Under the pieces are notes generated by a model. The model worked only from the letters and a program-made list of their open reading frames with translations, did no database searches and was not told the DNA's origin. A stretch of 64,000 nucleotides of DNA, taken from an uncultured Acidobacteriaceae bacterium (GTDB lineage Bacteria > Acidobacteriota > Terriglobia > Terriglobales > Acidobacteriaceae). Where the stretch lies: contig CAVPWD010000012.1 of assembly GCA_963709385.1 (NCBI GenBank), forward strand, positions 336,989 to 400,988, in the 5' to 3' direction. Both the position numbers and the translations under genes were made by a program. This document shows positions 12,929 to 51,196 of this stretch, in pieces. Position 1 is the first letter of the stretch. Every line of letters starts with the position of its first letter.

Positions 12929-13061
12929 GGTCTTAGGTCCTGGGTATTAGGTCTTATGCATTCCGCCGCGAACTCGGATCTCCCGACAGCAGGGCCAAGA
13001 CCTAAGACCCAAGACCTGATTCCCACTACTCCTGCTCAAGACCAAAGACCCAACACCCAAA
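12929..13061. repeat. inverted arrays of degenerate heptamers (GGTCTTA-type / AAGACCT-type)
   Basis: GGTCTTA GGTCCTG GGTATTA GGTCTTA at 12929-12955, then ~42 nt, then AAGACCT AAGACCC AAGACC at 12998-17 and CAAGACC AAAGACC CAACACC at 13037-61. Intergenic. Confidence 0.7.
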
Positions 13062-13076
13062 TGCCCGACGCCAGCC

Positions 13077-13445
13077 CTACTGCTGTTCGTGGTAGTGCAG
13101 CGCTTCCCAGAAACCGATCCAGATATCCAGCAGCCCCAGGCCGCTGCACAGGCCGCGGAAAAAGCCGTTGGAGACGATACTGCGCAGGTCGGGGAACGAG
13201 AGCAGAAGGTAATTGTCCGTCCACTCCGGCGTCCAGGGCAGAATGATGAGCAGCACTCCTGCGACGGCACTGATCAAAACAAAAAGAAAAACGGAAGTGC
13301 GGTGCATCCAGAGCTGTATGCCGCTGGGAATCGCAACCGGCGCGGCGGGTGCTGGCGGATCGAGTACCGCCGTCGGAGTCTCCGCGGGCGCAACCGTTTC
13401 TGCGGGTTTTGCGGGAGCGCTGGAGCCGGGCGTGGGGTCACTCAT
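13077..13445 (-). CDS. membrane protein of unknown function
   Basis: 122-aa ORF with a Pro/Ala-rich N-terminus and two TM helices. It is last in a co-directional group with the TPR genes upstream. Confidence 0.5.
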   Translation of the reverse strand: MSDPTPGSSAPAKPAETVAPAETPTAVLDPPAPAAPVAIPSGIQLWMHRTSVFLFVLISAVAGVLLIILPWTPEWTDNYLLLSFPDLRSIVSNGFFRGLCSGLGLLDIWIGFWEALHYHEQQ

Positions 13446-13549
13446 CCTAAAGGACTCCCGGCGCGGCTCATCCCGGAAACGGCGGAGAAAGAGTGGCGCT
13501 CGCTGAACCCCGAACGGAGACGATTAGGCACAAAACCCATCGGGCTATT

Positions 13550-14485
13550 CTACGACTTCAGGCCCTTAATGCGCTCGGCCACGTCGCGATAGTCGATGTT
13601 GTTGCCATACACATCCATGAAATGCTTGAGAGCGGAAGCTTTGTCGCCCGCAGTTTCGTAGGCGGCGGCCAGTTCGTAGTTCAGAGCGACCCGGGTCTCG
13701 CCATCGATGCCAGGAACGTGGAGAGCCTTGTCGTACCAGCGGACGGCGGCCTCAGGCACGCCTTTTTCCAGGAAACAATTCGCCAGCCAGGTATAGGTTT
13801 GCATGATCTGCGGGAAAGCGTGCCCGCGATCGAAGAACTGGCACGCTTTCTGCAGTTCGCCGATCGCTTCGTCGAGTAGTCCCATCTCTCGAAAGGCGAT
13901 GCCGAGGTTGTAATGCGTTTCCGGATCTTCGTCGGCCGACGCGACGTCCGATTCGAGATCCTGCTTGAGCTCGCCGAACATCTCGGCCAGGTCGACTCCC
14001 GCGTCTTCACCGAATGGAGAAGACTTGGCGGCAGCGGGCGCAGCCGGAGCAACCGGTTGCTGCTTGGGAACGTCGACTCCCGGCGCAGGCCAGGCCGAAG
14101 CCGGCGCGGCCACCGGTTGCGCCGCAGGCGCAACGTGCGAAACAGCTGAGGCCGACGCGGCGGCACTGGCGGCCATCGGCGGGATGATCCTCGGGGCCGT
14201 CACCGGAGGTGCGACCGGCGCAACCATCGGCGGCGCAGGCTGAGCCTTGGTGGCTGGAGGTCCCGCTTGTGCGACCGGCGCAGCCTTCAGGAAGTCTTCG
14301 CCTAGAGACGATTCAATGTCGGCAACGAACTCGCCCAGAACCGGCGCGGCCTGCGCGGCAGCGATCTTGGGTTCGGTGTGCGCAGCCGGAGCAAAAGCGG
14401 GCGAGGTTGGCTTGGGCCCAGAGGGCTTGGTCGCGGCAGGTTTCGACACGACGGTTGCTGCAGGCGCGACTGCGGGTTTGGCCAC
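13550..14485 (-). CDS. Pro/Ala-rich protein with C-terminal TPR domain (probably the 3' part of the upstream TPR gene)
   Basis: ORF with a GTG start. C-terminal TPRs (ETHYNLGIAFREMGLLDEAIGELQKA...). Its reading frame stays open and protein-like upstream of the GTG (see finding). Confidence 0.7.
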   Translation of the reverse strand: MAKPAVAPAATVVSKPAATKPSGPKPTSPAFAPAAHTEPKIAAAQAAPVLGEFVADIESSLGEDFLKAAPVAQAGPPATKAQPAPPMVAPVAPPVTAPRIIPPMAASAAASASAVSHVAPAAQPVAAPASAWPAPGVDVPKQQPVAPAAPAAAKSSPFGEDAGVDLAEMFGELKQDLESDVASADEDPETHYNLGIAFREMGLLDEAIGELQKACQFFDRGHAFPQIMQTYTWLANCFLEKGVPEAAVRWYDKALHVPGIDGETRVALNYELAAAYETAGDKASALKHFMDVYGNNIDYRDVAERIKGLKS

Positions 14486-14573
14486 GGTGCCCGGCAGGAA
14501 GCCCTCTCCCAGTGAACTTTCGAGATCGGAAACGAATTCCTTGAGAACGCTCGGCTCGGGCTCCGGTCCAGGC

Positions 14574-16973: not shown

Positions 16974-17122
16974 AAGAGTGCGAACCCCAGACCTGGTCTT
17001 TAGAGAACAACCTCTTTACAAAAACACAATCGCTGAACGCCGGGTGTTCGGGGAACTGCTCCCGGGATTGCCCCGAGGGTCATCTCACCTATCGGCAGAT
17101 GGACCGACCGGACAAGGCCAAT

Positions 17123-17194
17123 TGTACGACCGGACTCCACGAACCGCATGGTTACCAAGGGTTACCAAAAGGGAGTGTACGACCGGGTTACCAA
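17123..17194. repeat. cluster of short direct repeats (GGTTACCAA x3, TGTACGACCGG x2)
   Basis: GGTTACCAA at 17150, 17160 and 17186. TGTACGACCGG at 17123 and 17176. The cluster lies 150-220 bp upstream of the TPR gene start (16973, minus strand). Confidence 0.5.
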
Positions 17195-18136: not shown

Positions 18137-18167
18137 GCGGCGCAGCCCAGCCGTTAATCTGACCGCG

Positions 18168-18250: not shown

Positions 18251-18267
18251 CGTCGGCCACCACCGGC

Positions 18268-18597
18268 CTATCTCCTTGCCTTCTTGAGCATGGCGGAAAT
18301 ATTTTCCAGCTCTTCCTCTGTCAGGATGCAGGAACTCCCCAACGTCACGGTTAGAATACGATTAATTTCTTCTAGTGGCCTGCCTTTGGTCCGTTCGATA
18401 AAACGCGACCACTCCCTCCCCACAGCGGCGCGCTCCTGCGTACTGGCGTCGGCGCAGAATTCCCTCACCGCTTCCTCCGGCGAGCCGTACTCATCTTTCA
18501 TGTCCTGATGAAAATATCCCCGCAAAAAGCTGTGCAGCGCGGGGTAATCGGCGGCGGAGATCGCGGCTGGACTCTTGGGAGGATTTGGCTCGTTCAT
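18268..18597 (-). CDS. CdiI-like immunity protein
   Basis: ORF 18268..18651. The ATG at 18597 overlaps the toxin stop (ATGA). Pattern typical of contact-dependent-inhibition immunity proteins (YPALHSFLRGYFHQD...). Visibly more AT-rich than its neighbours. Confidence 0.7.
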   Translation of the reverse strand: MNEPNPPKSPAAISAADYPALHSFLRGYFHQDMKDEYGSPEEAVREFCADASTQERAAVGREWSRFIERTKGRPLEEINRILTVTLGSSCILTEEELENISAMLKKARR

Positions 18598-19127
18598 CGG
18601 CGGCACTCCGGATAGGCAGTCAGAACGTGATAGCTGTTCGCGCCGTCCCACTTCAACACGATCACGGCCTGAGCGCAGGGCTCGACGCGGTCTTCGCCAC
18701 GCCGCAGCGTTCGTCCAAAGGGATGCGCTGAGTCGCCGTCGTAATCGAGGACGAGATTCGGGTGGCCGTTCTCGCGTGCAAGCCAGCGGGAAATTTTGTT
18801 GCTCTCTTGCGCAAGCGCCGCACCAATGGCAGCTTCGGCGCTTTGGCGGTCATTCCAGGTGGATGCCGCCGAGAGGTTGCGCTCGCGCCGCAACCGCTCG
18901 CGCAGTTCTGCATCGCTTCGTCCCACATGCTTGCGCAGAGTGTGTCCGCCCGCGGCCTCGTCTTGCGAGAGATCGCGCGAGGGACCATGCCGCGCGTCAA
19001 AGAATGGCTGGGCACTCGGCCCGTTCTCCGGCGCCGGCGGCCGCGTGCAAGCCGCGCTCAAGCCGATCAGCGCGAGCGCGAGCATCCCCTGGACAAGGCG
19101 CGTTCGAAATGGAATTAAGCGGCGCAT
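18594..19127 (-). CDS. secreted bacterial RNase A-like (CdiA-CT type) toxin domain protein
   Basis: ORF 18594..19214. I prefer the ATG at 19127, giving signal peptide MRRLIPFRTRLVQGMLALALIGLSAAC. The domain pattern is GGHTLRKHVGRSDAELRERL...AASTW...ISRWL...HVLTAYPE. Confidence 0.7.
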   Translation of the reverse strand: MRRLIPFRTRLVQGMLALALIGLSAACTRPPAPENGPSAQPFFDARHGPSRDLSQDEAAGGHTLRKHVGRSDAELRERLRRERNLSAASTWNDRQSAEAAIGAALAQESNKISRWLARENGHPNLVLDYDGDSAHPFGRTLRRGEDRVEPCAQAVIVLKWDGANSYHVLTAYPECRR

Positions 19128-19406
19128 CGGAGGAAGCCAGACTACACAACCGCCGCCCAAAAAGCATCCGCAACAGAGTGCGAATAACTTAGACCCCAAG
19201 AAGGCGGAGCGCATGTTGCACTTCGCAAACTGTACTCCCGTCCCTCGTTCCCCTCACGATTCCACTAAACTTGTGCTGGAGCGCCATGTCCGAATCCCTC
19301 GCAGAGTTTTTTCTCGGAGAACTTTCGCGCCCACCGCCACGAGTGCGCCTACCGCCAGCGCCGCGGATACCGCACTGAATCGTTCACCTACGGTGAAGTC
19401 CTGGAG

Positions 19407-27188: not shown

Positions 27189-27540
27189 TCGACCGGCACA
27201 ATCTTGACTAGCTATTGTCAAGTCCACTTTCGTAGGTATAAAACGTCCTCGAAAGTAGACGTTTCTTCCACAGCCTAACCCGTTGCATCTGCACCTGCGC
27301 CGAATCCCTCACTCGTCGAATCAATTACTTATGAAAGGCAAATCCGCCGATTTCCACAGTGTTCCCGTAGGAACACTTCGCTCTCCAGACGCCAATGCCG
27401 GCCCACGTCTCACGCTTTCCTTCGTGCACCTTCGTGCCCTTCGTGGTGATCGCCTTTGTTCAACGTCAAACCCGCGCTGAGTCCTCCGCGTTGACGACGC
27501 CCGTCATCCACCCTAAGATTGAGGCTCCCAACCTTGCAAC

Positions 27541-27596
27541 CAAGCATGATCAACCAAGCATGATCAACCAAGCATGATCAACCAGGCATGATCAAC
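27541..27596 (+). repeat. 14-bp tandem repeat x4 (CAAGCATGATCAAC) containing the kinase start codon
   Basis: Three perfect copies plus one copy with a single A-to-G change. Each copy carries ATG and GATC. The last ATG (27588) starts the kinase ORF. Confidence 0.9.
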
Positions 27597-36480: not shown

Positions 36481-36984
36481 TTACGGAAGGACTACTTCCT
36501 TCAACCTTCCCGTCTTCACGTCATACACAAATCCCCGCACCGGAATATGTTTCGGGATCCAGGGGTGCGATTTCACGCGCTGCATCTGAAGGCGAACGTT
36601 CGCTTCTAGATCGTCGAAGGCGTGGAAATGCGCGGGCTCGGCCGCGGGCGCTCCCATCTTTTCGGTCAGGCGCGCTTTCAGTTCGTCTTCGCGCACCTTC
36701 AGCAGGCCGCAGTCGGTGTGGTTGATGATGATGAATTCCTGGGTGTCGAGCAGATGATGGGAGACGATGAGGGAGCGCAGGGCGTCGTCGGTGGCGATGC
36801 CGCCGGCGTTGCGAATCATGTGGGCGTCGCCGGGATGCAGGCCGAGACAGTGCTCGAACAGGATGCGGGAATCCATGCAGGCGAGCACGGCGACGTGGCG
36901 GCGCGGGCGGACGGAGAGATCTCCCAGCGTGAAATTGCGGGCGAAGGTTTCGTTGGCTTGTAAGAGTTCGTCGGCTACGGACAA
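36481..36984 (-). CDS. beta-class carbonic anhydrase
   Basis: Zinc ligand motifs CMDSR and HTDCG. TTG start preceded by AGGAG. Confidence 0.85.
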   Translation of the reverse strand: MSVADELLQANETFARNFTLGDLSVRPRRHVAVLACMDSRILFEHCLGLHPGDAHMIRNAGGIATDDALRSLIVSHHLLDTQEFIIINHTDCGLLKVREDELKARLTEKMGAPAAEPAHFHAFDDLEANVRLQMQRVKSHPWIPKHIPVRGFVYDVKTGRLKEVVLP

Positions 36985-37001: not shown

Positions 37002-37147
37002 GTCGTTGGTCGTTCGTCGTTGGCCGTTAGCCAAACACTTTCAGTGTTCGTGAAAATCCCCACGTCTCGCAAAGGACGCTAGACATGGGGCACCCAGCCG
37101 TTGGTTTGCCAACGACCAACGACCGACGACCAACGACCTGTGACCAG
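37002..37147. repeat. composite element: inverted GTCGTTG-type heptamer arrays flanking a REP hairpin
   Basis: GTCGTTG GTCGTTC GTCGTTG GCCGTTA (37003-30), then AACACTTTCAGTGTT, then the AAAATCCCCACGTCTCGCAAAGGACGCTAGACATGGGGCACCC unit (37053-95), then CCAACGA CCAACGA CCGACGA CCAACGA (37109-36). Confidence 0.75.
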
Positions 37148-37161: not shown

Positions 37162-38613
37162 GTGAATCTGGACGACACCATTGTCGCGATTGCCACACCC
37201 ACAGGGCGGGGAGGGATTGGAGTGGTGCGGCTGGCGGGACCTGCGGCGCGAGAGATCGTTGCGCCTATGCTGCGGCTGCGGCATGAACTGGAGGCGGGGC
37301 GGGCGGTGTTGGGGGAGTTGGTTGAGCCGGAGGTTTCCGCTTCAGTGCAAGAAGTCAAAATCCCCACCCCTTCGGCAAGCTCAGGGCAGGCTCTCTTTCG
37401 CGAAGAACGCGAAAGAAGGATGGGGCACCCGCAGCATCGGATCGACGAGGTGGTCGTCACTTATTTTTCCAAGCCACATTCTTATACGACCGACGACATT
37501 GTCGAAATTTCGGCGCATGGGGCGCCGGTGGTGTTGCGGCATATTGTGGAGCTTTGCGTGGCGGCGGGGGCGCGGCTGGCGGAGCCGGGCGAGTTCACCA
37601 TGCGTGCGTTTCTGAACGGGCGCATCGATCTTACGCAGGCGGAGGCGGTGCGCGATCTGATCGATTCGCAGACGTTGTATCAGGCGAAAGTCGCGGCGCA
37701 GCAACTGGAAGGCGCGCTGTCGCGGCGGTTGCAGCCGATCAAGAAAACGCTGGTGGAGCTGATTGCGGTGCTCGAAGCCGGGATTGATTTTGCCGAAGAC
37801 GACGTGTTGGTGATGGCGGACGCCGCGATTCTTGATCACATTGCTTCCGTTCGTAAACCCCTAGAGCAGCTGAACGCCACATTTGCTTACGGCAAGATCG
37901 TGCATGAAGGCTTGACTCTGGCAATTGTGGGGCGGCCGAACGTTGGGAAGTCGAGCCTGTTTAACCGGTTGGTGGAGCGGGAACGGGTGATCGTCACCGC
38001 GACTCCGGGGACCACGCGCGATTTGGTGAGCGAGACGGTCGCGATTGGCGGGATCCCGGTCAAGCTGATCGACACAGCCGGCATTCGCGAGGCGCTCGAT
38101 GAGGCGGAGTCGATCGGGATTCGCAAATCAAAGGAGGCGCTGGCCGACGCAGACCTGGTGTTGGTCGTGCTCGACGCATCGCAACCGGAGACGGCGGACG
38201 ATGCGGAACTGCAGCGGCTGGCTGAGGGCCGGCCGGCGATTGTCGTGGGAAACAAGTGCGACTTGGGAAGCAGTGGACAGTGGACAGGGGCCAGTGGTCA
38301 GAAGGTTCTTACTTCAGCGATCACTGGCGCGGGCATGGCCGAACTTCGCGAAGCCATTCTGCGACACATTGGTGGTGAGGCGGGAGCGCCGGCGGAGTCT
38401 GGTTTTCTGACCAGCGTTCGCCATCAGGGATTGATCAACGATTCGATGGCTGCGCTGGATGCGGCAAAGGTTGCGGTGACGGGGAAGATTCCGCACGAGA
38501 TGCTGCTGCTCGATCTTTACAACGCGCTGCGGCCGCTGGATGCGATCACGGGGGCGACTACCACAGACGATATTCTGAATTTGATTTTCAGCACGTTCTG
38601 CATCGGGAAATAG
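37162..38613 (+). CDS. mnmE: tRNA modification GTPase MnmE
   Basis: N-terminal [20 protein letters not shown] domain [18 protein letters not shown] and NKCD. C-terminal CIGK. Confidence 0.95.
37357..37430 (+). repeat. REP-like hairpin element embedded in frame in mnmE
   Basis: AAAATCCCCACC...CTTTCGCG-AAGAA-CGCGAAAG...GGATGGGGCACCC has the same termini as the intergenic units at 37053-95 and 42334-76. It encodes [25 protein letters not shown]. Confidence 0.65.
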
Positions 38614-39854: not shown

Positions 39855-39872
39855 TGGAGAACATTGTACGGG

Positions 39873-39907
39873 AGCTATCAGCTATCAGCTATCAGCTGTC
39901 AGCTATA
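39873..39907. repeat. heptamer tandem repeat (AGCTATC)x3 + AGCTGTC + AGCTATA
   Basis: Read directly from the sequence, 19 nt upstream of the ruvA start in the divergent intergenic region. Confidence 0.85.
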
Positions 39908-40003
39908 AACTGTGAGCAAATGAGTCCACGAAAAACCCGGAAATCAGCTCGGCTAGAAGGTCGCGATGGACAGCGTTTCCGGGCACTCTTAGAATCTCTT
40001 CGC

Positions 40004-40555
40004 ATGGTCTTACGGCGAGCTGCGATGTTTGCGTGGATGGTGCTTGTTGGCCTGACCGCGGCGTTCGCACAGACTGGCGCTGATCACGACGGGAACGCGG
40101 CCAGGCTGCTTTCGCCGGGTAAAGTTGTCGTGATGGTGTTTCTGCGACGGGACTGCCCGGTTTCGAGCCGCTATGCGCCGGTGATTCAGCAGATCAGCAA
40201 GACGTACTCCAGTCGCGCGAAATTCTTTCTAATATTTCCGGACAAAGCGGATTCTGCGGCGGACATTCAAAAATATCTGACAGATTACCGGTATTCCCTG
40301 CCCGCGTTTCCCGACCCCCGCCACATGCTGGCGAAACTGGGACACGTGCAGATCACTCCGGAAGTGGCGGTCTTCAGCGACCGTCAGCTGGTCTACGATG
40401 GGCGCATTGACGACTGGTATATCGAGTTGGGCAAGGCGCGTTCCGCGCCTACGACCCATGAGTTGAAAGACGCGCTGGACGCGGCGTTGGCCGGAAAAAC
40501 CCCGGCTCGCGCCGAGGTCAGGGGAGTGGGATGCTACATTTCCGACATGGAATGA
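40004..40555 (+). CDS. secreted thioredoxin-fold (redoxin-like) protein
   Basis: ORF 39854..40555. ATG at 40004 gives a signal peptide. Redoxin-like core with CPVS in place of CxxC. Confidence 0.6.
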   Translation: MVLRRAAMFAWMVLVGLTAAFAQTGADHDGNAARLLSPGKVVVMVFLRRDCPVSSRYAPVIQQISKTYSSRAKFFLIFPDKADSAADIQKYLTDYRYSLPAFPDPRHMLAKLGHVQITPEVAVFSDRQLVYDGRIDDWYIELGKARSAPTTHELKDALDAALAGKTPARAEVRGVGCYISDME

Positions 40556-42327
40556 CGCGCATCCTCGGGCTCGTGGTCGGAACGGCGGCGCTCGCTGCGC
40601 AGAATTCCAAGCCCGTCACCTTCAATCGCGATATTGCCCCGATCATTTTTCGTTCCTGCTCGACGTGTCACCGGCCGGGTGAGGCTGCGCCGTTTTCTCT
40701 TCTGACGTATTCCGACGTGAAAAAGCACGCGCGGCAGATTGCGGAAGTGACGCGGTCGCGGGCTATGCCGCCGTGGCTCCCCGAGCCGCAGGCCCTGAAG
40801 TTTGCCGACGAACTGCGCCTGCCAGAAGCCGAAATCGAGCGAATCGAGCGCTGGGTCGAGCAGGGAGCGGTCGAGGGCGACGCCGGCGATCTGCCCGCGC
40901 AGCCGAAATTTGTGGAAGGCTGGCGCCTCGGGAAACCGGACATGGTGCTCACGGCGACTAAGCCGCTTACGCTTCCGCCGCAGGGCACGGACACCTATTG
41001 GAACTTTATTTTCCCTGTGCCGATTCAAGAAACCCGCTGGGTGAAGGCCGTCGAGATTCGTCCGGGCGATAAGCGCTACGTGCACCACGCCAACATTCTG
41101 GTCGATCGCTCCGGCGCATCGCGCAAGCGCGAAGCCGAGCCGGGCGCTGGTTTCGGTGGCATGGAGATTCGCATCGAATCGCAGGTGTTCGATCCCGATA
41201 GCCATCTTCTCTTCTGGAAGCCGGGGACAGTTCCTTACGTTGAGCCGGAAGGAATGGCGCTAAGGCTCGATAAAGGAACTGATTTGATTCTTAACACGCA
41301 CCTGCAGCCATCGGGGAAGCCGGAGGTGATCCAGCCGAGCATTGGACTCTACTTCACGCCGCAGGCCGCGACGAAACTCCCCATGCTCCTGCAGCTCGAA
41401 AATGATTTGAAGCTCGATATTCCGGCCGGGGATGGGGATTTTCTAGTCACCGATGACTTCGCGCTGCCGGTTGATGTAGATCTGATCGCGATCTATCCGC
41501 ATGCACATTATCTGGGGAAGGATATTCAGGCGTTCGCGACATTTCCTGACGGCACGAAGACAACGCTGATTCACATTCCGCAATGGAATCTGAACTGGCA
41601 GGCGGTGTATCGCTATGCGGAGCCGGTGCGGCTGCCGAAGGGGACGACAGTGAGTTTGCGCTACACCTACGACAACTCGGCGGAGAATCCGCTGAACCCG
41701 AATCATCCTCCGGTGCGGGTGGTGGCCGGGAACCGGTCGAGCGACGAGATGTGCCACCTGTGGCTGCAGGTGCTGCCAGTGAATTTCGACCCCGCGGACG
41801 GCGATCCGCGGATGGCGCTGCAGGAAGCGTTGGCGCGGCGTGATGTGGAGAAAAATCCTGCCGACTTTGAAGCGCATTACAACCTGGCCGCGATGCTGCA
41901 GGCGAAAGACAAGCTGGAGGCGGCGATCGGCGAATACGAATCGGCAGTGCATTTGCGGCCAGCGGATGCGGCCGCGAACAATGCTCTTGGAGCGGCGCTG
42001 GTGGCGGCGGGGCGTCCCGAGCAAGGAGTCGGATATTTGCAGACCGCGTTGAAGGCGCGGCCGGACTATTTCGAGGCTCACTACAATCTTGGCCTGGTGC
42101 TGGCCGGCCAGAGCCAATTCCAAGAAGCCGCTCAACAATTTACATTCGCGTTGCAATTGCAGCCGCAGGATGCCAACGTGGAGGCCAACCTGGGAGCTGC
42201 GCTGGCGGAGATGGGAAGATTTGCGGAAGCGAAGGCGCACTTCGAGCATGCGTTGCAGCTCGATCCTGAGCAGCCCATTGCGAAAGAGAATCTGGAAATG
42301 GTGAAGAAGGAAATGGGGGCGCACTAG
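40552..42327 (+). CDS. protein with CxxCH heme-binding motif, copper type II monooxygenase-like domain and C-terminal TPRs
   Basis: ATGA overlap with the upstream gene. CSTCH motif in a planctomycete-cytochrome-like segment. His-rich beta-sandwich segment (YVHHANILV, IYPHAHYLG). The TPRs start around residue 440. Confidence 0.65.
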   Translation: MTRILGLVVGTAALAAQNSKPVTFNRDIAPIIFRSCSTCHRPGEAAPFSLLTYSDVKKHARQIAEVTRSRAMPPWLPEPQALKFADELRLPEAEIERIERWVEQGAVEGDAGDLPAQPKFVEGWRLGKPDMVLTATKPLTLPPQGTDTYWNFIFPVPIQETRWVKAVEIRPGDKRYVHHANILVDRSGASRKREAEPGAGFGGMEIRIESQVFDPDSHLLFWKPGTVPYVEPEGMALRLDKGTDLILNTHLQPSGKPEVIQPSIGLYFTPQAATKLPMLLQLENDLKLDIPAGDGDFLVTDDFALPVDVDLIAIYPHAHYLGKDIQAFATFPDGTKTTLIHIPQWNLNWQAVYRYAEPVRLPKGTTVSLRYTYDNSAENPLNPNHPPVRVVAGNRSSDEMCHLWLQVLPVNFDPADGDPRMALQEALARRDVEKNPADFEAHYNLAAMLQAKDKLEAAIGEYESAVHLRPADAAANNALGAALVAAGRPEQGVGYLQTALKARPDYFEAHYNLGLVLAGQSQFQEAAQQFTFALQLQPQDANVEANLGAALAEMGRFAEAKAHFEHALQLDPEQPIAKENLEMVKKEMGAH

Positions 42328-42333
42328 AAGATC

Positions 42334-42376
42334 AAAATCCCCACGTCTCGCAAAGGACGCGAGACATGGGGCACCC
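42334..42376 (+). repeat. REP-like hairpin unit (AAAATCCCCACGTCTCGC-AAAGGAC-GCGAGACATGGGGCACCC)
   Basis: Differs at one position from the copy at 37053-37095. It sits 7 nt after the stop of the upstream gene. Confidence 0.7.
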
Positions 42377-42429
42377 GTAGTGCTGTGAGACTCCAAGACC
42401 CGCTCGGTTTTTATGCTTTAATCCACGGT

Positions 42430-43488
42430 ATGCGCGGAATTTACTTACATTTTCGTTTTCGATGCTTGGGCATTGCGTTGCTCGTGGCGGCATTTTCTGT
42501 GGTGGGGATTGCGCAGCAGGGTGCGCCTGCCGCACCGCCGTCGCAAGCGGTGCCGCCGGCGGAGTTTGCCGAAGCGCGGAAGTTGATGCAGCAGGGAAAG
42601 GCCGACGAGGCCATCGCGGAGTTGCAGAAACTTGAAGCCAAAGATCCCGCCACCAAGGGTCTCGCACTGGAACTGGGCACGGCGTATTACAAGAAGGCCG
42701 ACTTCGTAAAGGCGATCCAGTATCTGAAGCAGGCAACCGCCGCGGATCCCGCGAATGGCGAGGCGACTCAATTGCTCGGTCTCTCGTATTACCGGGGCGG
42801 TCATCCGGCGGATGCCATTCCCTTGCTGGAGAAAGTGCAAGGGTGGTATCCGCGGGTCAACGCGGATGCCTCGTACGTGCTGGGCGTTTGCTATATCCAG
42901 ACCAAAGACTACGAGCGGGCGCGCAAGGCATTTGGCCAGATGTTCGACGTGCCGCCGGACTCGGCCGCGAGTTACCTGTTCACGGCGCGCATGCTGTTCC
43001 GCCAGGACTTCGATCCGGTGTCGGAAGAGTACGCGCAGAAAGCAGTCGCGCTCGATCCGAAACTGCCGCTGGCACATTTCCTGCTGGGCGAGTTGTACAC
43101 CTACAAATCGCGGATCCCGGAGGCGATTTCGGAGTTCGAGAAAGAACTCGCCATCAACCCGGCGGACGCTGCGACCTACTACAAACTGGCTGACGCGTAT
43201 TCGAGAATTCAAAAATACGAAGAGGCGCAGCGCTTGCTGCAGCGTTCCATCTGGCTGGATGCGACGTCGACGGGGCCGTTCATCCTGATGGGCAAGGTGC
43301 TGGAGAAAAAAGGTGAACTCGATCTGGCGGTGCTCGCGCTGCGGCGCGCGGTGAGCATGGACCCGAATAATCCCATGCCGCATCACTTATTGGGGCAGGC
43401 GTATCGCGACATGGGGAAGAAGGAAGAAGCGGAGAGCGAACTGAAGCTGGCCGAGGAGTTGCAGACGCAGCAGGACGCGCATCCCTAG
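42430..43488 (+). CDS. TPR repeat protein (secreted)
   Basis: ORF 42385..43488. ATG at 42430 gives a signal-like N-terminus. TPRs run throughout. Confidence 0.7.
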   Translation: MRGIYLHFRFRCLGIALLVAAFSVVGIAQQGAPAAPPSQAVPPAEFAEARKLMQQGKADEAIAELQKLEAKDPATKGLALELGTAYYKKADFVKAIQYLKQATAADPANGEATQLLGLSYYRGGHPADAIPLLEKVQGWYPRVNADASYVLGVCYIQTKDYERARKAFGQMFDVPPDSAASYLFTARMLFRQDFDPVSEEYAQKAVALDPKLPLAHFLLGELYTYKSRIPEAISEFEKELAINPADAATYYKLADAYSRIQKYEEAQRLLQRSIWLDATSTGPFILMGKVLEKKGELDLAVLALRRAVSMDPNNPMPHHLLGQAYRDMGKKEEAESELKLAEELQTQQDAHP

Positions 43489-43494
43489 CTTTTC

Positions 43495-43615
43495 TCCGCG
43501 ATCTTCGCGGATTTCCTTCGCGACCTCTGCGGGTAAGAGCTTTTCGCTAGCCTGCGGAAAAAGCGTTTAACCGCAGAGGCCGCGAAGAAAGGCCGCAGAG
43601 GTCGCAGAGAGGGGC
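43495..43615. repeat. REP-like mosaic (CCGCAGAGG/CGCGAAG units) between convergent genes
   Basis: Long imperfect hairpin: CCTTCGCGACCTCTGCGG (43515-32) pairs with CCGCAGAGGCCGCGAAGA (43571-88), plus a direct repeat GGCCGCAGAGGTCGCAGAG. Related CTTCGTG units occur at 27416-27447. Confidence 0.55.
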
Positions 43616-43620
43616 AACGG

Positions 43621-45675
43621 CTAGAGTGCGGCGGCTTGCTCGCGCCGGCGAGCCTGAATTTCGACATAGACGTTCACCAACGACACCGCTGCCGGGGTCA
43701 CTCCTGGGATGCGCGAGGCCTGGCCCAGCGTGCGCGGTTGCACTTTGCTGAGCTTTTCCTGCATTTCGCGCGAGAGGCCGCTGACGGAGCGGTAGTCGAA
43801 CCATTCGGGGATGGCATGCTGCTCGGACTTTTTCAGGCGCTCCATGGCGCGCTGCTGCTGCAGCAGGTAGCCTGCGTACTTGATCTCGGTTTCGACGGAT
43901 TTCAGTTCGTTTCTTACTTCCGACGAGATCTTCACCACAGGGGAGAACCTTGCGAAGAAATCCGGGGTGAGCTCTCGCAGGACCGGCAGCAGTCGCTCGA
44001 TTGCGATTTCCGGGCGCTTTAGCAACTGACCCAGCGTTTGTCCGAGGGCAGACGACAGGTCGGCAGTTGGGGCGCCGCCGGCGACAGCAGGTTCCTCACC
44101 CTCGCTTCGCGAGAGTTCGGAATGACAAGACGCCAATATTTCGGCGGTGATCCGAGTGGTCTCCAACAACTTCTTCAGCTTCTCCAGCCGCTGCTGCTTC
44201 GCCTGAAAATCTTCCCAGGCTTCATCATGAATGAGCCCGACGCGGCGGCCGTGGGGAGTGAGGCGGCGGTCGGCGTTGTCGATGCGGAGGTGCAGACGGA
44301 ACTCGGCGCGCGACGTGAACATGCGGTAAGGCTCGTTCGTGCCCTTCGAAATCAGGTCGTCGATCAGGATCGCGGTGTATGCTTCGGTTCGGTCGAGAAT
44401 CAGCGGCGGTTGTTGCTTTACTTGCTGCGCGGCGTTGATGCCGGCCATCAATCCCTGGCACGCGGCTTCTTCGTAGCCGGACGTCCCGTTGATCTGGCCC
44501 GCGAGGAACAGGTTCGCGATCTTGCGGGTTTCGAGCGTGCGCTCCAGTTCCGTTGGATCGATCGAGTCGTATTCGATGGCGTAGCCCGGCCGCAGCATTT
44601 CGGCGTTCTCAAGCCCGGGGATCGACTTCAGAATCGCCATCTGCACTTCGACCGGGAGGGAGGTGCTCATACCGTTAACGTAAATCTCGTGCGTGTTCAG
44701 GCCTTCGGGCTCGAGGAAAAGCTGGTGCGTCTCCTTGTCGGGAAATTTCACGATCTTGTCTTCGATCGAGGGACAGTAGCGCGGGCCGATCGACTGAATC
44801 TGGCCGCTGTACATGGGCGAGCGATGCACGTTCTCGCGAATGATGCGGTGTGTCTCGGCCGTGGTGTAGGCGATGTAGCAGGGCACTTGTGAGTCGTGAT
44901 GCGCGACGCGCTTCGTTCGAAAACTGAACGGAGTGGGATCGGCGTCGCCCGGCTGCTCCGCGAAGCGCGACCAGTCGATGCTGCGTCCATCCAAGCGCGG
45001 CGGAGTGCCGGTCTTGAGCCGGCAGCCGCGCAGGCCCAACTTTTTCAGCGCTTCGCCGAGCAGGACGGCGGCGGGTTCGCCGGAACGTCCGGCAGGATAT
45101 TGTTGCTCGCCGCAGTGGATGAGGCCGTTCAGGAACGTTCCGGTCGTGATGATGACGGCTTGCGCGCCCACGGTGCGGCCGTCGCGAAGGCGAATGCCGA
45201 GAACCCGGCGTCGGTCGTTGGTCGTTAGTCGTTGGTCGTTAGCAAAAGCGTCGCCATCCTGCGGGTCGGCCAACGACGAACGACCAACGACTAACGACTC
45301 GACTTCCGCCTGCTTGATCTTCAGATTCGGCTGCGACTCCAGCACTTCGCGCATTTTCAGGCGGTAGGCCTGCTTGTCGCATTGGGCGCGCGGCGACCAG
45401 ACGGCGGGGCCGCGCGACGTATTGAGCAGACGAAACTGGATGCCGACCGCGTCGGTGATTTCGCCCATGATGCCGCCGAGGGCGTCTACTTCGCGGACCA
45501 GGTGTCCTTTGGCAATGCCGCCGACGGCGGGGTTGCACGACATCTGCGCAATCAGATCGACGTTGAGCGTGTAGAGCGCGGTCTTCAGGCCCATGCGCGC
45601 GGCGGCCATGGAAGCTTCGCATCCAGCATGGCCGGCGCCGACCACGACTACGTCGAATTGTTCGGTGAATTGCAT
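43621..45675 (-). CDS. mnmG: tRNA uridine 5-carboxymethylaminomethyl modification enzyme MnmG (GidA)
   Basis: [18 protein letters not shown] motif, then [24 protein letters not shown] and the C-terminal [13 protein letters not shown]. Confidence 0.95.
44091..44135 (-). repeat. REP-like element (GTCATTCCGAAC family) embedded in frame in mnmG
   Basis: The coding strand reads TGGCGTCTTGTCATTCCGAACTCTCGCGAAGCGAGGGTGAGGAAC and encodes [14 protein letters not shown]. It matches the intergenic copies at 56559-97 and 7773-7804. Confidence 0.6.
45213..45298. repeat. inverted GGTCGTT / CCAACGA heptamer arrays embedded in frame in mnmG
   Basis: GGTCGTT GGTCGTT AGTCGTT GGTCGTT, then a 27-nt loop, then CCAACGA CGAACGA CCAACGA CTAACGA. 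Confidence 0.8.
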
Positions 45676-46577: not shown

Positions 46578-46615
46578 GATCGGTGTTCCGGGATTCATTC
46601 AGGCCACATTCTTTC

Positions 46616-46655
46616 GAGCCACTGATTTGGATAAAATCAGTGGCTCATTCGTTTT
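46616..46655 (+). terminator. rho-independent terminator
   Basis: 13-bp perfect stem GAGCCACTGATTT-GGATA-AAATCAGTGGCTC followed by ATTCGTTTT, 39 nt after the stop of the CADD-like gene. Confidence 0.8.
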
Positions 46656-46684
46656 GAAGAGTCTTTTTGGGAGAGTGGACAACT

Positions 46685-47074
46685 GTGGCCAAAGACATTC
46701 CCATCGGCGCGCGCGGCGAGGCCGAAGAGACGGTCGAGTTCAAACACACGCTCACGTCGCACCATCCGGAACTGCCGCCGGTGTATTCGACGCCGGACAT
46801 GATCCGGCTGATGGAGACGGCCGCATTTCGCGCGCTGCAGCCTTTCTGCGAAGGCGACGAGATCACGGTGGGAACGTCGATTCACATCGACCACCGCGCC
46901 GCCAGCGGCGTTGGCGCACACATCAAGGCCGAGGCCGTGTTGGAATCGTTTGACGGCCGCTTCTACACGGTTCGCGTCACGGTCCGCGATGATGACCGCG
47001 AGATCGGCCGCGGCACCGTGGGACGGGCGGTGGTGAGCATCGGAAAATTTGTCGAGAGGATGAAGGGAAAGTGA
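46685..47074 (+). CDS. hotdog-fold thioesterase (FlK-like family)
   Basis: ORF 46667..47074. GTG at 46685 lies 9 nt after GGGAGAG. Pattern VYSTPDMIRLMETAA...GTSIHIDHRAASGVG...GRFYTVRV. Confidence 0.65.
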   Translation: MAKDIPIGARGEAEETVEFKHTLTSHHPELPPVYSTPDMIRLMETAAFRALQPFCEGDEITVGTSIHIDHRAASGVGAHIKAEAVLESFDGRFYTVRVTVRDDDREIGRGTVGRAVVSIGKFVERMKGK

Positions 47075-47102
47075 GTCCCGAGAACTGAGAACTGGAAACT
47101 CC

Positions 47103-47561: not shown

Positions 47562-47683
47562 TAAATCACGTAGCCCGGACGCATGATCCAGCGGCACGCT
47601 TTTGACTTCCGAGCGGGCGCTCGTTGCGCGGACGAAGGCGTCGGCCGCTCCACGGCGATTGCGGTTGCTACAATCGCAATCGG

Positions 47684-48895
47684 ATGTCGCTGCAATTTCA
47701 GATTGAAAAGACTGCCGGCTCTGCCCGCCTCGGGCGCCTGATCACGGCGCATGCGGTGATCGAGACGCCGGTGTTTATGCCGGTCGGGACCGTGGCGTCG
47801 GTCAAGGGCGTGTCTCAGGACATTCTGGAAGAACTGGGCGCGCAGATTATTCTCGGCAATACCTATCACCTCTACCTGCGGCCCGGCATCGATACGGTGC
47901 GGAAGATGGGCGGGCTGCATGGGTTCATGGCGTGGCGGCGGGCGATCCTGACGGACTCCGGCGGGTTCCAGGTCTTCAGCCTCAACGAACTGCGCAAGGT
48001 CAGCGAAGAGGGCGTGACGTTTCGTTCGCACCTGGATGGGTCTTCTCACTTCTTCAGCCCGGAGAGCGCGATGCAGGCGCAGATCGGGCTGGGCGCCGAC
48101 ATCATCATGGCGTTCGATGAATGCACGGAGTATCCGGCGGATCGCGCGCGGATGCGGGATTCCATGGAGATGACCGCGCGCTGGGCGGCGCGCAGCAAGA
48201 AATATTTCGAAGAGCATAAGCATGAAGTGCCGTGGAACCAGGGGCTAGGGGCCAGTGGCCAGGGATCAGGAGATCAGGGGCCAGAGGCTCCGGCTAATCC
48301 CTTGCCCCTAGCCCCTAGCCCCTCGACCCAATCTCTCTTCGGCATCGTGCAGGGCGGGATGGATCGCGAGTTGCGAAGAGAGTCCGCCGAGCGGACGGTT
48401 GAAATCGGATTTCCCGGCTATGCAATTGGCGGACTCAGCGTGGGTGAGCCGCGCGAGCTTACGCGCGAGATGGTCGAATCCACGCTGGAGCACCTTCCCT
48501 CGGACAAGCCACGTTATGTGATGGGCGTGGGTACGCCGGAAGAAATTGTCGAGTATGCCAGCCTGGGCGTGGACATGATGGATTGCGTCCTGCCGACGCG
48601 GGCGGCGCGGCACGGGCTGCTGTTTACGTCGGAGGGCAAGGTTTCGATCAAGCAAGCGCGCTACGCCCAGGATGCGGGGCCGCTCGACCCGAATTGCTCC
48701 TGCCGGGTGTGCCATCGCTATTCGCGAGCATATTTACGTCATCTCTATGCTTCTAATGAAGTTCTGGCGCAGGTCCTGAACACGATCCACAACCTGAGTT
48801 TCTACCTTGACACTATGCGGCGGGTGCGGCATTCTATCTCACTTGGGGAAGAGGCTCGTTTTCTTTCGAGTGTATGGTCTCTACCGAAACCGTAG
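47684..48895 (+). CDS. tgt: queuine tRNA-ribosyltransferase
   Basis: ORF 47624..48895; ATG at 47684. Motifs TPVFMPVGT, LTDSGGFQVFS and GYAIGGLSVGEP, plus zinc site CSCRVC...H. Confidence 0.95.
   Translation: MSLQFQIEKTAGSARLGRLITAHAVIETPVFMPVGTVASVKGVSQDILEELGAQIILGNTYHLYLRPGIDTVRKMGGLHGFMAWRRAILTDSGGFQVFSLNELRKVSEEGVTFRSHLDGSSHFFSPESAMQAQIGLGADIIMAFDECTEYPADRARMRDSMEMTARWAARSKKYFEEHKHEVPWNQGLGASGQGSGDQGPEAPANPLPLAPSPSTQSLFGIVQGGMDRELRRESAERTVEIGFPGYAIGGLSVGEPRELTREMVESTLEHLPSDKPRYVMGVGTPEEIVEYASLGVDMMDCVLPTRAARHGLLFTSEGKVSIKQARYAQDAGPLDPNCSCRVCHRYSRAYLRHLYASNEVLAQVLNTIHNLSFYLDTMRRVRHSISLGEEARFLSSVWSLPKP
48241..48323. repeat. inverted GGGGCYA / TAGCCCC heptamer arrays embedded in frame in tgt
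   Basis: GGGGCTA GGGGCCA GTGGCCA GGGATCA GGAGATCA GGGGCCA ... TAATCCC TTGCCCC TAGCCCC TAGCCCC. Confidence 0.75.
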
Positions 48896-49044
48896 ACGGC
48901 TTAACCGCCTTCCCCGGATGCAAGCCTGAAAGCTGAAGGAACCCGGCCGAAGTCGATCCAAACCCCGTGGTGAAATAACAGCTCCCGTCAGTGGCGGGCG
49001 TTTTTTCGCGGACACATCCGCCCAGACTTTTTGAATAGGTCCGC

Positions 49045-49386
49045 TTGAATATGCACGTTTCAAATATGCAGGCTCTATTTTTATTGCAGGCACCGAGTGG
49101 TGGTGGCGGCATGTCGCTGCTGATCATGTTCGTGCCCATGATCGCCATTTTTTACTTTCTTCTGATCATGCCCCAGCAACGCCGCCAGAAAAAATGGCAG
49201 GCCATGCTCGACCAGTTGAAGACGGGCGATAAGGTTACGACCAGCGGCGGGTTGCGGGGAACGATCATTGCCCTGAAAGATGACGCGGTGCATCTGCGCC
49301 TGCCGCCCGACAATCTGCGGGTGGAAGTGACCAAGGCCTCGGTCATGCAGGTGACCACGGTCGAAGACGAAGTGAAGACGAAGTGA
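49045..49386 (+). CDS. yajC: preprotein translocase subunit YajC
   Basis: TM helix followed by the PQQRRQKKWQAMLDQLKTGDKVTTSGGLRGTI pattern. The start could be 49045, 49051 or 49066. Confidence 0.85.
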   Translation: MNMHVSNMQALFLLQAPSGGGGMSLLIMFVPMIAIFYFLLIMPQQRRQKKWQAMLDQLKTGDKVTTSGGLRGTIIALKDDAVHLRLPPDNLRVEVTKASVMQVTTVEDEVKTK

Positions 49387-49388
49387 AA

Positions 49389-49481
49389 CAGTTGCCAGCG
49401 GCCGGTTGTCAGTTGCCAGTGTTTGGCCAACGGCAGCTCATGGTTGTGACTGGCAACTGGCAACAGACAACTGGCAACTGG
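49389..49481. repeat. inverted CAGTTGC / TGGCAAC heptamer arrays in the yajC-secD gap
   Basis: CAGTTGC CAGCGGC CGGTTGT CAGTTGC CAGTG, then a 26-nt loop, then GAC TGGCAAC TGGCAAC AGACAAC TGGCAAC TGG. Confidence 0.8.
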
Positions 49482-49489
49482 TTCTCATC

Positions 49490-51103
49490 ATGACTAAGAA
49501 TTATCTCTGGAAACTCGGACTCATCCTCGGCACGCTGCTGTTTTTCCTGTTCGGAATCTTTGGGATTCCGCAGAGCTTTTCCGGCGCCGGCCTGCTTGAT
49601 GCCATGACCAAGCGCATTAATCTTGGCCTCGATCTGAAGGGTGGGACGCACCTGATTCTGCAGGTGCAGGTCAATGACGCAGTCAACGTAGATGCGCAGA
49701 ACGCCATTGAAATCCTGAAGCAGCAACTGCGCAATCGCAAGATCGACTACACCGATATTACCCAGCCCGACCAGCAGAATAATCCCGATCACATCGTGCT
49801 AAAGGGCGTCCAGGCCGGTTCCCGCACCGACCTGCTGAGCATTGTGTCAGATCGTCTGCCCGAGTATGACATCACCGGCGGAGCGGAAAATTCGTGGAAC
49901 ATTTCGATGAAGCCGCAACTGCTTTCCGAGTTGAAAGACAAAGCGGTGACGCAGGCGATCGAGACCATCCGCAACCGCATTGACGCTCTCGGTGTGAGTG
50001 AGCCCACGATCCAGCCGCACGGATTGGGGCAGTACCAGATTCTTGTGCAACTGCCCGGCGTGGACGATCCGCAACGCGTGAAGGACATTATGCAGTCCAC
50101 CGCGATGCTCGAGATCAAGCAGTCGCTGGGTGGGCCGTATCCCAGCGAGCAGGCGGCCATGCAGGCAAATAACGGCGTTCTGCCCGCGGATTCGATGCTG
50201 ATGCCGGGGCACAGCATGCCCGGCGACCCCGAAGGGCAGGCCTGGTACCTGGTGTCGCGAGTCTCGGCAGTGAGCGGAAAAGACCTGCGCGACGCGCAGC
50301 CCAACCGGGATCAGAATGGCCAGCCCAGTGTGACCTTCACCCTGACCAGCGAAGGCGGACAGCGATTTTACGGCTTTACCTCCAATCACGTGGGCGACAG
50401 CCTGGCCGTGGTGCTCGACAACAAAGTGCAGGAAGTCGCCAACATCAAGGAAGCGATCCGCGACCAGGGCTCGATCAGCGGTGGGCACATGAGCGAGCAG
50501 CAATCGAAGGATCTTTCCATGATCCTGCGTTCCGGCGCGCTCCCGGCCGGGATCAAGTATCTGGAAGAGCGTACCGTCGGTCCGTCGCTGGGAACAGATT
50601 CCATCCGCGCGGGCGTGCGCGCCGCAGTTGCGGGCATGGCCGCCGTGCTGATCTTCATGCTCATTTATTACCGCGGGGCCGGCATTAATGCCGACGTGGC
50701 GCTCATTCTGAATCTTGTCATCCTGCTGGGATTCATGGGCTATTTCGGTGCAGTGCTCACGTTGCCCGGAATTGCCGGCGTGATTCTGACGGTTGGTATG
50801 GGCGTCGACTCCAATGTGCTGATTTTCGAACGCATCCGCGAAGAATTGCGCAATGGCAAGACGCCGCCTTCGGCAGTGGATCAGGGATTCAGCCACGCCT
50901 GGATCACCATCGTGGATACGCACGTTACGACGATTGTTTCGGCCGCAATTCTGTTCCTGTTCGGAACCGGCCCCGTACGCGGATTCGCCACCACTCTGAC
51001 TTTCGGCCTGCTGGCAAACCTGTTCACGGCCGTATTCGTGTCGCGCGTGATCTTCGATTGGGGTCTTGAGCGGAAAGAGCGCGGCGAAGCGCTGAGCATT
51101 TAG
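49490..51103 (+). CDS. secD: protein translocase subunit SecD
   Basis: ORF 49406..51103. ATG at 49490 (MTKNYLWKLGLILGTLLFF). Pattern LGLDLKGG plus the C-terminal 6-TM SecD/SecF domain. Confidence 0.95.
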   Translation: MTKNYLWKLGLILGTLLFFLFGIFGIPQSFSGAGLLDAMTKRINLGLDLKGGTHLILQVQVNDAVNVDAQNAIEILKQQLRNRKIDYTDITQPDQQNNPDHIVLKGVQAGSRTDLLSIVSDRLPEYDITGGAENSWNISMKPQLLSELKDKAVTQAIETIRNRIDALGVSEPTIQPHGLGQYQILVQLPGVDDPQRVKDIMQSTAMLEIKQSLGGPYPSEQAAMQANNGVLPADSMLMPGHSMPGDPEGQAWYLVSRVSAVSGKDLRDAQPNRDQNGQPSVTFTLTSEGGQRFYGFTSNHVGDSLAVVLDNKVQEVANIKEAIRDQGSISGGHMSEQQSKDLSMILRSGALPAGIKYLEERTVGPSLGTDSIRAGVRAAVAGMAAVLIFMLIYYRGAGINADVALILNLVILLGFMGYFGAVLTLPGIAGVILTVGMGVDSNVLIFERIREELRNGKTPPSAVDQGFSHAWITIVDTHVTTIVSAAILFLFGTGPVRGFATTLTFGLLANLFTAVFVSRVIFDWGLERKERGEALSI

Positions 51104-51104
51104 G

Positions 51105-51196
51105 AATTGAGCCATTGAGCGATTGGATCATTGAGCGATTGAAAAACTATTTAGTTTTCAATCACCCAATAACGCAATCGGCAAATCACGCAATTC
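51105..51196. repeat. inverted heptamer arrays (..ATTGAGC.. / ..CAATC..) in the secD-secF gap
   Basis: AATTGAGCCATTGAGCGATTGGATCATTGAGCGATTGAAAAA, then an 8-nt loop, then TTTTCAATCACCCAATAACGCAATCGGCAAATCACGCAATTC. About 29 of 41 positions are complementary by my hand alignment. Confidence 0.75.

Follow-up and report, generated by a model that had tools for sequence, protein, structure and literature searches.

Hairpin cassettes with arms of tandem degenerate heptamers at shared sites in uncultured Terriglobales: a proposed lineage-wide class of palindromic elements

Tandem repeats with a heptameric unit have been known in bacteria since 1990 (short tandemly repeated repetitive sequences, STRR). 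In many bacteria no long simple repeat is commoner than the heptameric kind, which has been attributed to polymerase slippage, and the preference for 7 nt has been ascribed to the footprint of the polymerase (Mrazek 2007, as summarised in PMC4679880). In Xanthomonas, the unit GGGAATC forms 183–186 arrays per genome, with 70–75 convergent pairs and 7–11% of intragenic copies (Rehm et al. 2015, PMC4692102). The palindromic elements of Rickettsia (RPE) are translated as extra peptide segments that are compatible with the protein fold (PMC10969869). The present analysis concerns hairpins whose arms are arrays of tandem degenerate heptamers, found in a 64,000-nt stretch (the window) of an uncultured Acidobacteriaceae bacterium (assembly GCA_963709385.1, contig CAVPWD010000012.1, positions 336,989–400,988) and in related loci. 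These elements are proposed to form a lineage-wide class of small palindromic cassettes, of non-coding origin, with arms of tandem degenerate 7-nt, sometimes 8-nt, units. A preliminary description of the window knew of no account of paired inverted arrays that also lie in frame in genes, a claim that is not upheld given the convergent and partly intragenic pairs of Xanthomonas (PMC4692102) and the in-frame palindromes of Rickettsia (PMC10969869).

A lag-7 scan of the window finds 12 arrays against 0.2 expected from dinucleotide-preserving shuffles, whereas each of the other periods from 4 to 16 yields 0–2 arrays in the same scan. With Tandem Repeats Finder, period-7 arrays are recovered at every locus named in the preliminary description save 51104–51196, where the inverted arrays are present as claimed but the unit is not a heptamer, the period being 8 (and 16). 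No inverted repeats of the window are longer than the six paired loci, each of which folds into a single long hairpin (−26 to −65 kcal/mol; z −3.8 to −5.4 relative to shuffles) whose stem mismatches fall about every 7 or 14 nt, coinciding with the degenerate position of the unit. The inverted pairing reported earlier is borne out at 12922–13017, 37002–37137, 45209–45298, 48233–48330, 49380–49489 and 51104–51196; at the first of these loci, formerly given as 12929–13061, the inverted heptamer arrays stand, while the two-array layout is incomplete, a third array lying at 13037–13060. The one-armed arrays at 38270–38301, 39871–39917 and 47080–47100 were recovered by both methods, and another at 1589–1615 is added to those already listed. 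The elements are as follows, in window positions, with the strand where one is assigned:

1589–1615: one-armed array of CGATTGN (3.9 copies), beginning 15 nt past the stop of the open reading frame (ORF) 1068–1574
12922–13060: hairpin A, 5′ arm of GGTCTTA type (12922–12955) and 3′ arm of AAGACCY (12995–13017), fold z −4.1 and −3.8, in the spacer between two minus-strand genes, 13077–13445 and a LOG-family gene (11946–12824)
13037–13060: extra 3′-type array of hairpin A
37002–37139: hairpin B, arms (GTCGTTN)4 and (NAACGAC)4, z −5.4, filling the divergent spacer between a beta-carbonic anhydrase gene (36481–36984, minus strand) and mnmE (37162–38613, plus strand)
38270–38301, plus strand: one-armed array of CAGTGGA (4.4 copies), in frame in the G domain of mnmE, in a loop that varies among relatives
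39871–39917: one-armed array of AGCTATC/AGCTGTC (about 5–6 units), between ruvA and a thioredoxin-like gene
45209–45300, minus strand: hairpin C, of the GTCGTT family like B, in frame in mnmG (43621–45675, minus strand) and coding for about 28 residues, z −5.2
47080–47100: one-armed array of GAGAACT (3 copies), beginning 6 nt past the stop of a thioesterase gene (46667–47074)
48233–48330, plus strand: hairpin D, arms GGGGCYA/GTGGCCA/GGGATCA and CCCCTAG, z −3.8, in frame in tgt (47624–48895; likely true start 47684) and coding for NQGLGASGQGSGDQGPEAPANPLPLAPSPS
49380–49489, plus strand: hairpin E, arms of CAGTTGC type and ACTGGCA, z −5.4, spanning from the yajC stop codon (49384–49386) to 2 nt before the secD ATG (49491)
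51104–51196, plus strand: hairpin F, 8-nt-unit arms, ATTGAGCN / NGCTCAAT-like, z −3.9, starting 1 nt past the secD stop and ending about 38 nt before the secF start, at a site occupied in most relatives

The closest matches to the MnmG and Tgt proteins of the window come from metagenome-assembled Terriglobales, mostly Candidatus Sulfotelmatobacter, at amino-acid identities of 86–89% and 92–97%, respectively. The source organism is a Terriglobales acidobacterium that resembles Ca. Sulfotelmatobacter. For comparison, genomes and metagenomes supplied 160 mnmG loci, which amount to 2.3 Mb once duplicates are removed, with heuristic, GC3-based gene calls beyond the window; a scan of metagenome contigs gave a best relative of 89%, and the strain-level relative, L161, came from a Tgt protein search. 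In the first 1.42 Mb of related loci, 142 arrays have period 7, the runners-up being period 6 (33) and period 8 (31). An inverted partner (at least 16 of 21 bases matching, at most 200 nt away) accompanies 64 of 154 arrays and a direct partner 8, so that period 7 prevails over all others and the arms are preferentially paired, as the preliminary description had led one to expect. The arrays occur commonly in Sulfotelmatobacter-like bins but hardly at all in Acidobacteriaceae proper (Silvibacterium, Tunturiibacter, Edaphobacter).

Of the long hairpins, defined by arms of 20 nt or more and numbering 143, the arm period is 7 in 71 and 8 in 16, and no arm period dominates in 51. The period-7 hairpins are strongly polar: the G+T-rich arm is the 5′ one in 63 of 71 (p 1e-11) and in 24 of the 28 outside MnmG, and the tetramer CAGT occurs 23 times in the 5′ arm, where ACTG never does. 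Since a hairpin reads alike on both strands, this polarity is independent of the direction of transcription. After rotation, all 5′-arm units match T-Y-K-Y-Y-R-G (5.66 bits, versus 3.65 for shuffled units). Beyond this grammar there is great diversity, with 70 canonical units among 154 arrays, no shared consensus peptide or palindrome, and unrelated loops in elements of the same unit, which agrees with the earlier view that these are not copies of one MITE (miniature inverted-repeat transposable element). The shared grammar (T-Y-K-Y-Y-R-G, with the core RGT/CAGT) and the polarity suggest either common descent or a copying step that is sequence-selective. A small number of conserved unit families was considered and rejected, as the apparent excess of AACGACC (14 arrays) stems mostly from a single orthologous MnmG site that was counted in many species. 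Outside the lineage, a peptide of the NDQRPTT type occurs in short hypothetical ORFs of Burkholderia pseudomallei, B. mallei and Chloroflexi bins (P0001–P0018), and AACGACC-like heptamer arrays are therefore present in unrelated phyla too; a search of 5.8 billion proteins with an idealised cassette peptide returned short hypothetical ORFs only and says nothing on the diversity of host proteins.

Related species share sites but hold different cassettes in them. The MnmG, Tgt and MnmE ORFs are intact across about 100 relatives, and the in-frame genic copies noted at the outset are real in all three. Alignment to solved structures shows that Tgt residues 198–235 and MnmG residues ~131–151 have no counterpart in characterised homologues, which marks the genic copies as insertions that keep the frame. 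The AlphaFold model obtained for Tgt (mean predicted local distance difference test score, pLDDT, 55.6; insert below 50, like many other segments) is too poor to convey more than an unstructured insert. In nearly every species a different insert occupies the MnmG loop that lies between QAEVxxLIVE and RVLGIxLRDGRTV: some are heptamer hairpins in translation (TENRELRTEN, NDQRPTTND, LETRNSKLET, SALGTRYSVLG), others are unrelated palindromes resembling repetitive extragenic palindromic (REP) sequences, and nested combinations also occur. Two further variable sites lie in the C-terminal half of MnmG, at ~44074–44106 (residues ~524–534) and at about residue 578; relatives hold heptamer or REP-like cassettes there (HPERSEAKPNAVEGP, CHSEERSDEES, RVGTGASPVQ), and the window a short remnant.

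The Tgt loop between HKHEVPW and TQSLFGIVQGG contains at least eight cassette types among proteins that are at least 82% identical, plus a 13-residue 'empty' form. This empty loop (VESAGAGARA; L163, 8340–8400) is coded by a perfect 10-bp GC palindrome, GCGCGGGCGC-AG-GCGCCCGCGC, so that even the minimal state of the site is a hairpin. MnmE possesses two variable, cassette-bearing loops. Outside genes, a hairpin occupies a constant position in the yajC–secD and secD–secF spacers of many species, with differing units: GTTTCNA, GTCSCGA, GTGGYCA and GGGATCA in the former, where the window has GTTGCCA, and AATTGAGY or AATTTGGT in the latter. One clade is entirely without the yajC–secD hairpin, and L163 has the 5′-type array alone at this site. 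Other REP-like elements coexist in the same sites (in translation HVGTAAPGCP, IPTLAAKSAARMGHP and HPERSEAKPNAVEGP), and the loop of hairpin B contains a nested, unrelated palindromic element at 37050–37095. The latter belongs to a second palindromic family (GTSAAAATCCCCAC ... ATGGGGCACCC) that occurs twice in the window, the other copy, at 37354–37430, lying in frame in the N-terminal domain of MnmE (peptide VKIPT...RMGHP); relatives carry this family (IPTLAAKSAARMGHP) in Tgt and MnmE loops.

Comparison of close relatives demonstrates that local slippage diversifies the elements. Very close relatives retain their cassettes: the window and L161 are 96.5–98.7% identical over most of their length, with hairpins D, E and F and two one-armed arrays identical, whereas hairpin C differs by four substitutions, every one inside the arms. 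The unit-number variation anticipated between close relatives is seen as whole-unit steps: a 14-nt (two-unit) arm indel between contigs that are 99.3% identical (L140 and L141), a 21-nt (three-unit, seven-residue) indel in MnmG (L129 and L138), and 21-nt indels in the window-type Tgt cassette among 90–97% relatives. Three successive units are altered alike between L043 and L153, and the two arms diverge from each other in L030 versus L145 and in L143 versus L144. Outside the elements, the window and L161 also differ by tandem duplications of 9 nt in mnmG (43944), 15 nt at a gene end (56518) and 15 nt at 57628–57663 (ORF 56673–58472); all are multiples of 3, and slippage is thus generally active in this lineage.

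Slippage is accompanied by signs of exchange. Hairpins B and C share an identical 25-mer, GTCGTTGGTCGTTCGTCGTTGGCCG. Across the comparison set, units match (distance of at most 1) in 15% of same-genome, different-site pairs versus 7.4% of different-genome, different-site pairs (p 9e-4), and an exact string of 16 nt or more is common to both members in 5 of 46 same-genome, different-site pairs versus 37 of 2819 different-genome pairs (p 5e-4; odds ratio ~9). Whole cassettes are also replaced: L009 and L096, which are 94.8% identical, hold unrelated MnmG cassettes with 61 mismatches per 100 nt inside and 1–4 per 100 nt in the flanks on both sides, and the same replacement is found between L150 and L158. 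At the ruvA/thioredoxin-like spacer, the window has (AGCTATC)5, while L161 (97–98% identical) has a GGTCTTR hairpin whose lead-in, TGGTKTTC, and unit match hairpin A of the window, 27 kb away. Nested insertions are common. From these shared arm strings, cassette swaps and nesting, we infer that the sites are seeded and reset as cassettes are copied or replaced from one locus or allele to another.

Divergence between the window and L161 is itself a mosaic of blocks that range from 88% to 100% identity. Along 37780–58870, stretches with 0–1 differences per 250 nt (38.0–39.8 and 49.3–56.5 kb) alternate with blocks of 6–12% divergence, a signature of frequent homologous recombination. The heptamer array at 39873 forms one boundary of a divergent 3.6-kb block (39873–43490, 88% identical) and a hairpin at 43493–43610 the other, and two more block edges lie 50–60 nt from elements D and E; this proximity is suggestive only. 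The hairpin at 43493–43610 is a 118-nt non-heptamer structure with z −7.9, whose 52-nt arms are 79% complementary; it separates mnmG from the TPR gene convergent with it and is missing in the 97% identical L161, whose two stop codons abut.

These observations could be accommodated by a two-tier history, local slippage combined with copying between loci or alleles and with selection merely filtering the outcome, an account that stands at about even chances of being correct. In the first tier, a cassette would reach, or replace the content of, one of a limited set of tolerant sites, namely short spacers, usually just past a stop codon, and protein surface loops; the route might be ectopic or allelic recombination, template switching or a trans-acting enzyme. 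Copying of this kind would leave arms and lead-in, though not loops, common to sites of one genome, and would produce cassette swaps between near-identical genomes. In the second tier, which the comparisons of close relatives demonstrate, arms already in place evolve rapidly by replication slippage that gains or loses whole units and homogenises adjacent ones, the two arms drifting semi-independently, and different loci in consequence carry different units. Selection would act as a filter that retains genic copies when they are stop-free and a multiple of 3 nt, hence the 21-nt steps, and intergenic copies when they spare the downstream ribosome-binding region.

Several points weigh against this two-tier history. 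Units match in 14.4% of same-site pairs across genomes, which is on a par with the sharing within genomes, so that vertical descent explains much of the resemblance. Some cassette swaps could have come about between strains, through allelic recombination, and not by movement inside one genome. The 61 ORFs of the window include no transposase, REP-associated tyrosine transposase (RAYT) or site-specific recombinase that could serve as a copying enzyme, and neither target-site duplications nor definable conserved termini are seen at the boundaries compared, which lack clean filled/empty pairs at high identity. The loops of same-unit elements are unrelated, unlike the product of a cut-and-paste or copy-paste MITE. 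The sample is biased, in that all related loci were picked via mnmG and orthologous sites are not independent, and for this reason the MnmG site dominates the counts; many sequences are, moreover, metagenome assemblies or bins in which repeats may be mis-assembled. Finally, the preference for 7 nt and the polarity are explained by neither tier.

Alternatively, the cassettes might be classical MITE- or REP/REPIN-like non-autonomous elements moved in trans by a dedicated transposase, for example of the RAYT/IS200-type HUH class. The hairpin would be what such an enzyme recognises, and hairpins already present would be its favoured targets, with slippage as secondary noise. Nested insertions at hot-spot sites, cassette replacement and the sharing of arms within genomes would all follow, and the strict polarity and RGT/CAGT core are reminiscent of the tagged 5′ ends of REP sequences (PMC3733652). 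This explanation is nevertheless unlikely, given that there is no consensus past the unit grammar, that loops differ among same-unit copies, that no target-site duplication is seen, that the 64-kb window contains no transposase, and that D, E and F are unchanged and C only point-mutated relative to the 97% identical relative.

Conversely, nothing might move at all: slippage would make an array, and fold-back or quasipalindrome template switching would make its inverted arm. The diversity of units (70 types among 154 arrays), the unrelated loops, the long persistence of cassette families at orthologous sites, the whole-unit indels and concerted changes, and the existence of one-armed arrays as possible precursors, such as the 5′-type array of the L163 yajC–secD spacer, agree with purely local generation. 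It is quite unlikely as the complete explanation, however, since it does not predict the identical 25-mer at two window loci, the roughly ninefold excess (as an odds ratio) of long strings common to non-orthologous sites within a genome, the complete replacement of cassettes at 95% flank identity, the lead-in common to hairpin A and the L161 ruvA element, or a single grammar and polarity across all units. The local generating mechanism suggested in the preliminary description thus stands as regards slippage, in view of the 14- and 21-nt indels and concerted units; as the whole story it does not, given sharing, swaps, nesting and the one grammar.

A further possibility is that the hairpins are selected functional elements, acting as mRNA hairpins that tune relative expression within operons (stabilisers or post-stop translation brakes), as arrays of sites for an RNA- or DNA-binding protein, or as recombination punctuation in which Chi-like G+T-rich arrays face a cleavable hairpin tip. 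A hairpin lies just past the secD stop in most relatives and past the yajC stop in many, with differing sequence, and 17 of 26 co-directional intergenic copies begin at most 11 nt after the upstream stop. These 17 leave about 35 nt before the next start, a placement that fits a filter sparing the downstream initiation region and would also fit a post-stop role. As for the remaining variants, a regulator has been suggested to bind, in Beggiatoaceae, the TAACTGA heptamer arrays found upstream of start codons (PMC4679880), the polarity would let an enzyme entering from the loop meet the G+T-rich array from its 3′ side, and three edges of window–L161 divergence blocks lie within 60 nt of elements. 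Selection for function is nonetheless very unlikely to be the general explanation: the whole window yields no Rfam match at the gathering score, a whole clade lacks the yajC–secD hairpin, genic copies fit operon regulation poorly, the block-edge evidence is anecdotal, and sense-strand G·U pairs do not exceed A·C mismatches. The G·U:A·C ratio is 16:14 in co-directional intergenic copies and 30:66, the wrong way, in genic ones (an initial subset had given 14:4 for intergenic copies, which became 16:14 once all loci had gene calls), and selection at the RNA level was rejected. Intrinsic terminators were rejected as well, for no T run follows the stems, many copies lie inside genes, and 1 of 87 period-7/8 hairpins lies between convergent genes, versus 12 of 56 aperiodic hairpins.

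A bolder reading of the fixed-site observation would treat the sites, loops of essential tRNA-modification enzymes among them, as 'sockets' for exchangeable cassettes, maintained by a dedicated, sequence-selective mechanism that reads the RGT-type grammar and hairpin polarity; this is a long shot. One candidate mechanism is that the hairpin breaks at its tip and is then repaired, the outward-facing G+T-rich arrays serving as Chi-like stop signals. If true, the hairpins would be recombination punctuation that seeds strain mosaicism, and the same mechanism may underlie the heptamer repeats of STRR, Xanthomonas and Beggiatoa in other phyla. Chance or assembly artefact, which could be suspected because short-read metagenome bins, where tandem repeats can collapse or become chimeric, supply many of the related loci, has a practically negligible likelihood and is effectively refuted by the 12 window arrays against 0.2 expected, the same architecture in about 100 independent assemblies (Mb-scale contigs among them), the intact reading frame of every genic copy, and the identical elements in the independent assembly L161.

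Two other features of the window stand apart from the heptamer hairpins. The repeat at 27541–27596, formerly read as a 14-mer made of two heptamers, is instead a true 14-mer, CAACCAAGCATGAT, present in 4.4 copies at 27537–27598, which lie directly ahead of a Ser/Thr kinase gene and take in its start (27588); it is a duplication of the kinase start region. In each upstream copy a mini-ORF (MINQA-stop) ends in a TGA that overlaps the following ATG, and a change in copy number could tune or phase-vary translation. A minus-strand ORF with a CdiA-CT RNase A-like toxin domain (18594–19214) is followed by a CdiI-type immunity gene (18268–18651), and 18268–19214 looks like an orphan contact-dependent-inhibition toxin/immunity pair.

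The lineage is unusually informative, since it combines dozens of units, one grammar and polarity, a hairpin layout, fixed sites that are comparable across hundreds of uncultured relatives, and copies predicted to be translated within MnmG, Tgt and MnmE. Existing metagenomes therefore allow three questions to be tested: how such repeats originate and spread, by slippage or by copying between loci; whether hairpins mark the edges of recombination blocks; and how far essential enzymes tolerate repeat-encoded disordered loops, a route to new protein sequence. In practical terms, the cassettes make 'conserved' marker proteins longer and more variable and may interfere with the alignment, phylogeny and assembly of Acidobacteriota bins.

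Known systems resemble these elements in different respects. As in Xanthomonas, degenerate heptamers occur in dispersed tandem arrays (about four units each there), opposite-strand convergent arrays are able to form stem-loops (about 40% there), most copies are intergenic between co-directional genes with an intragenic minority, and the repeat content at the same genes differs among closely related species (PMC4692102). The polarity is apparently also the same, with the G-rich array 5′ on each strand, to judge from the text of PMC4692102. In contrast, Xanthomonas has one dominant unit, read as a G-quadruplex former (G-rich GGGNATC, giving at least four G tracts), whereas dozens of units occur here and G tracts are confined to element D (GGGGCYA), none being present in GTCGTTG, CAGTTGC, GGTCTTA, AGCTATC or ATTGAGCG. 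The present elements also lie in frame in loops of conserved enzymes at sites kept across species, and GGGAATC is without the RGT core.

The STRR of cyanobacteria are likewise heptameric tandem repeats with several unit families, and their units CCCCAGT, CAACAGT and TTGGTCA conform, fully or nearly, to the CAGT / T-Y-K-Y-Y-R-G frame. STRR copies in the cyanobacterial RNase P RNA gene extend helix P12. To our knowledge, paired in-frame protein-coding copies of STRR at orthologous hot spots have not been described. Heptamers inside the gene for RNase P RNA were reportedly the subject of a 1997 article by Vioque (cited in PMC2858038), going by its title. Unlike STRR1–3 of heterocystous cyanobacteria, the elements described here are hosted by an acidobacterium, their units differ, and the CAGT-type core alone is common to both, by comparison with the units just listed; STRR families are, furthermore, few and highly conserved in sequence, which is not the case here.

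Like RPE, the genic copies are small palindromes in frame in unrelated housekeeping genes (Ogata et al. 2000; PMC10969869). RPE, however, form families of ~100–150 bp with a conserved consensus and peptide and without tandem short units, while the arms here are heptamer arrays that change unit and number, with a loose grammar alone conserved. With REP/REPIN sequences, the elements share imperfect hairpins in short spacers, often just past stops, as well as inverted doublets, long persistence at orthologous sites and a defined 5′ polarity (PMC3733652). REP sequences differ in being conserved palindromes of 20–40 nt that bear a GTAG or CGTC tag, occur in many near-identical copies and go with a cognate RAYT gene; the present elements have neither a conserved palindrome nor such a tag, and none of the 61 window ORFs is a RAYT. 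The TAACTGA repeats of Beggiatoaceae, Cyanobacteria and Bacteroidetes are also heptamer arrays with an ACTG/CAGT core, mostly intergenic near start codons with few copies in ORFs, but they are almost all direct, one-armed arrays of a single unit, with one inverted case (MacGregor 2015, PMC4679880).

In the literature, no description was found of such elements in Acidobacteriota, of many-unit hairpin cassettes at conserved sites in essential enzymes, or of the polarity rule. Taken together, the elements described here fail the sequence-defining features of each known family, yet they share the behaviour of all of them.

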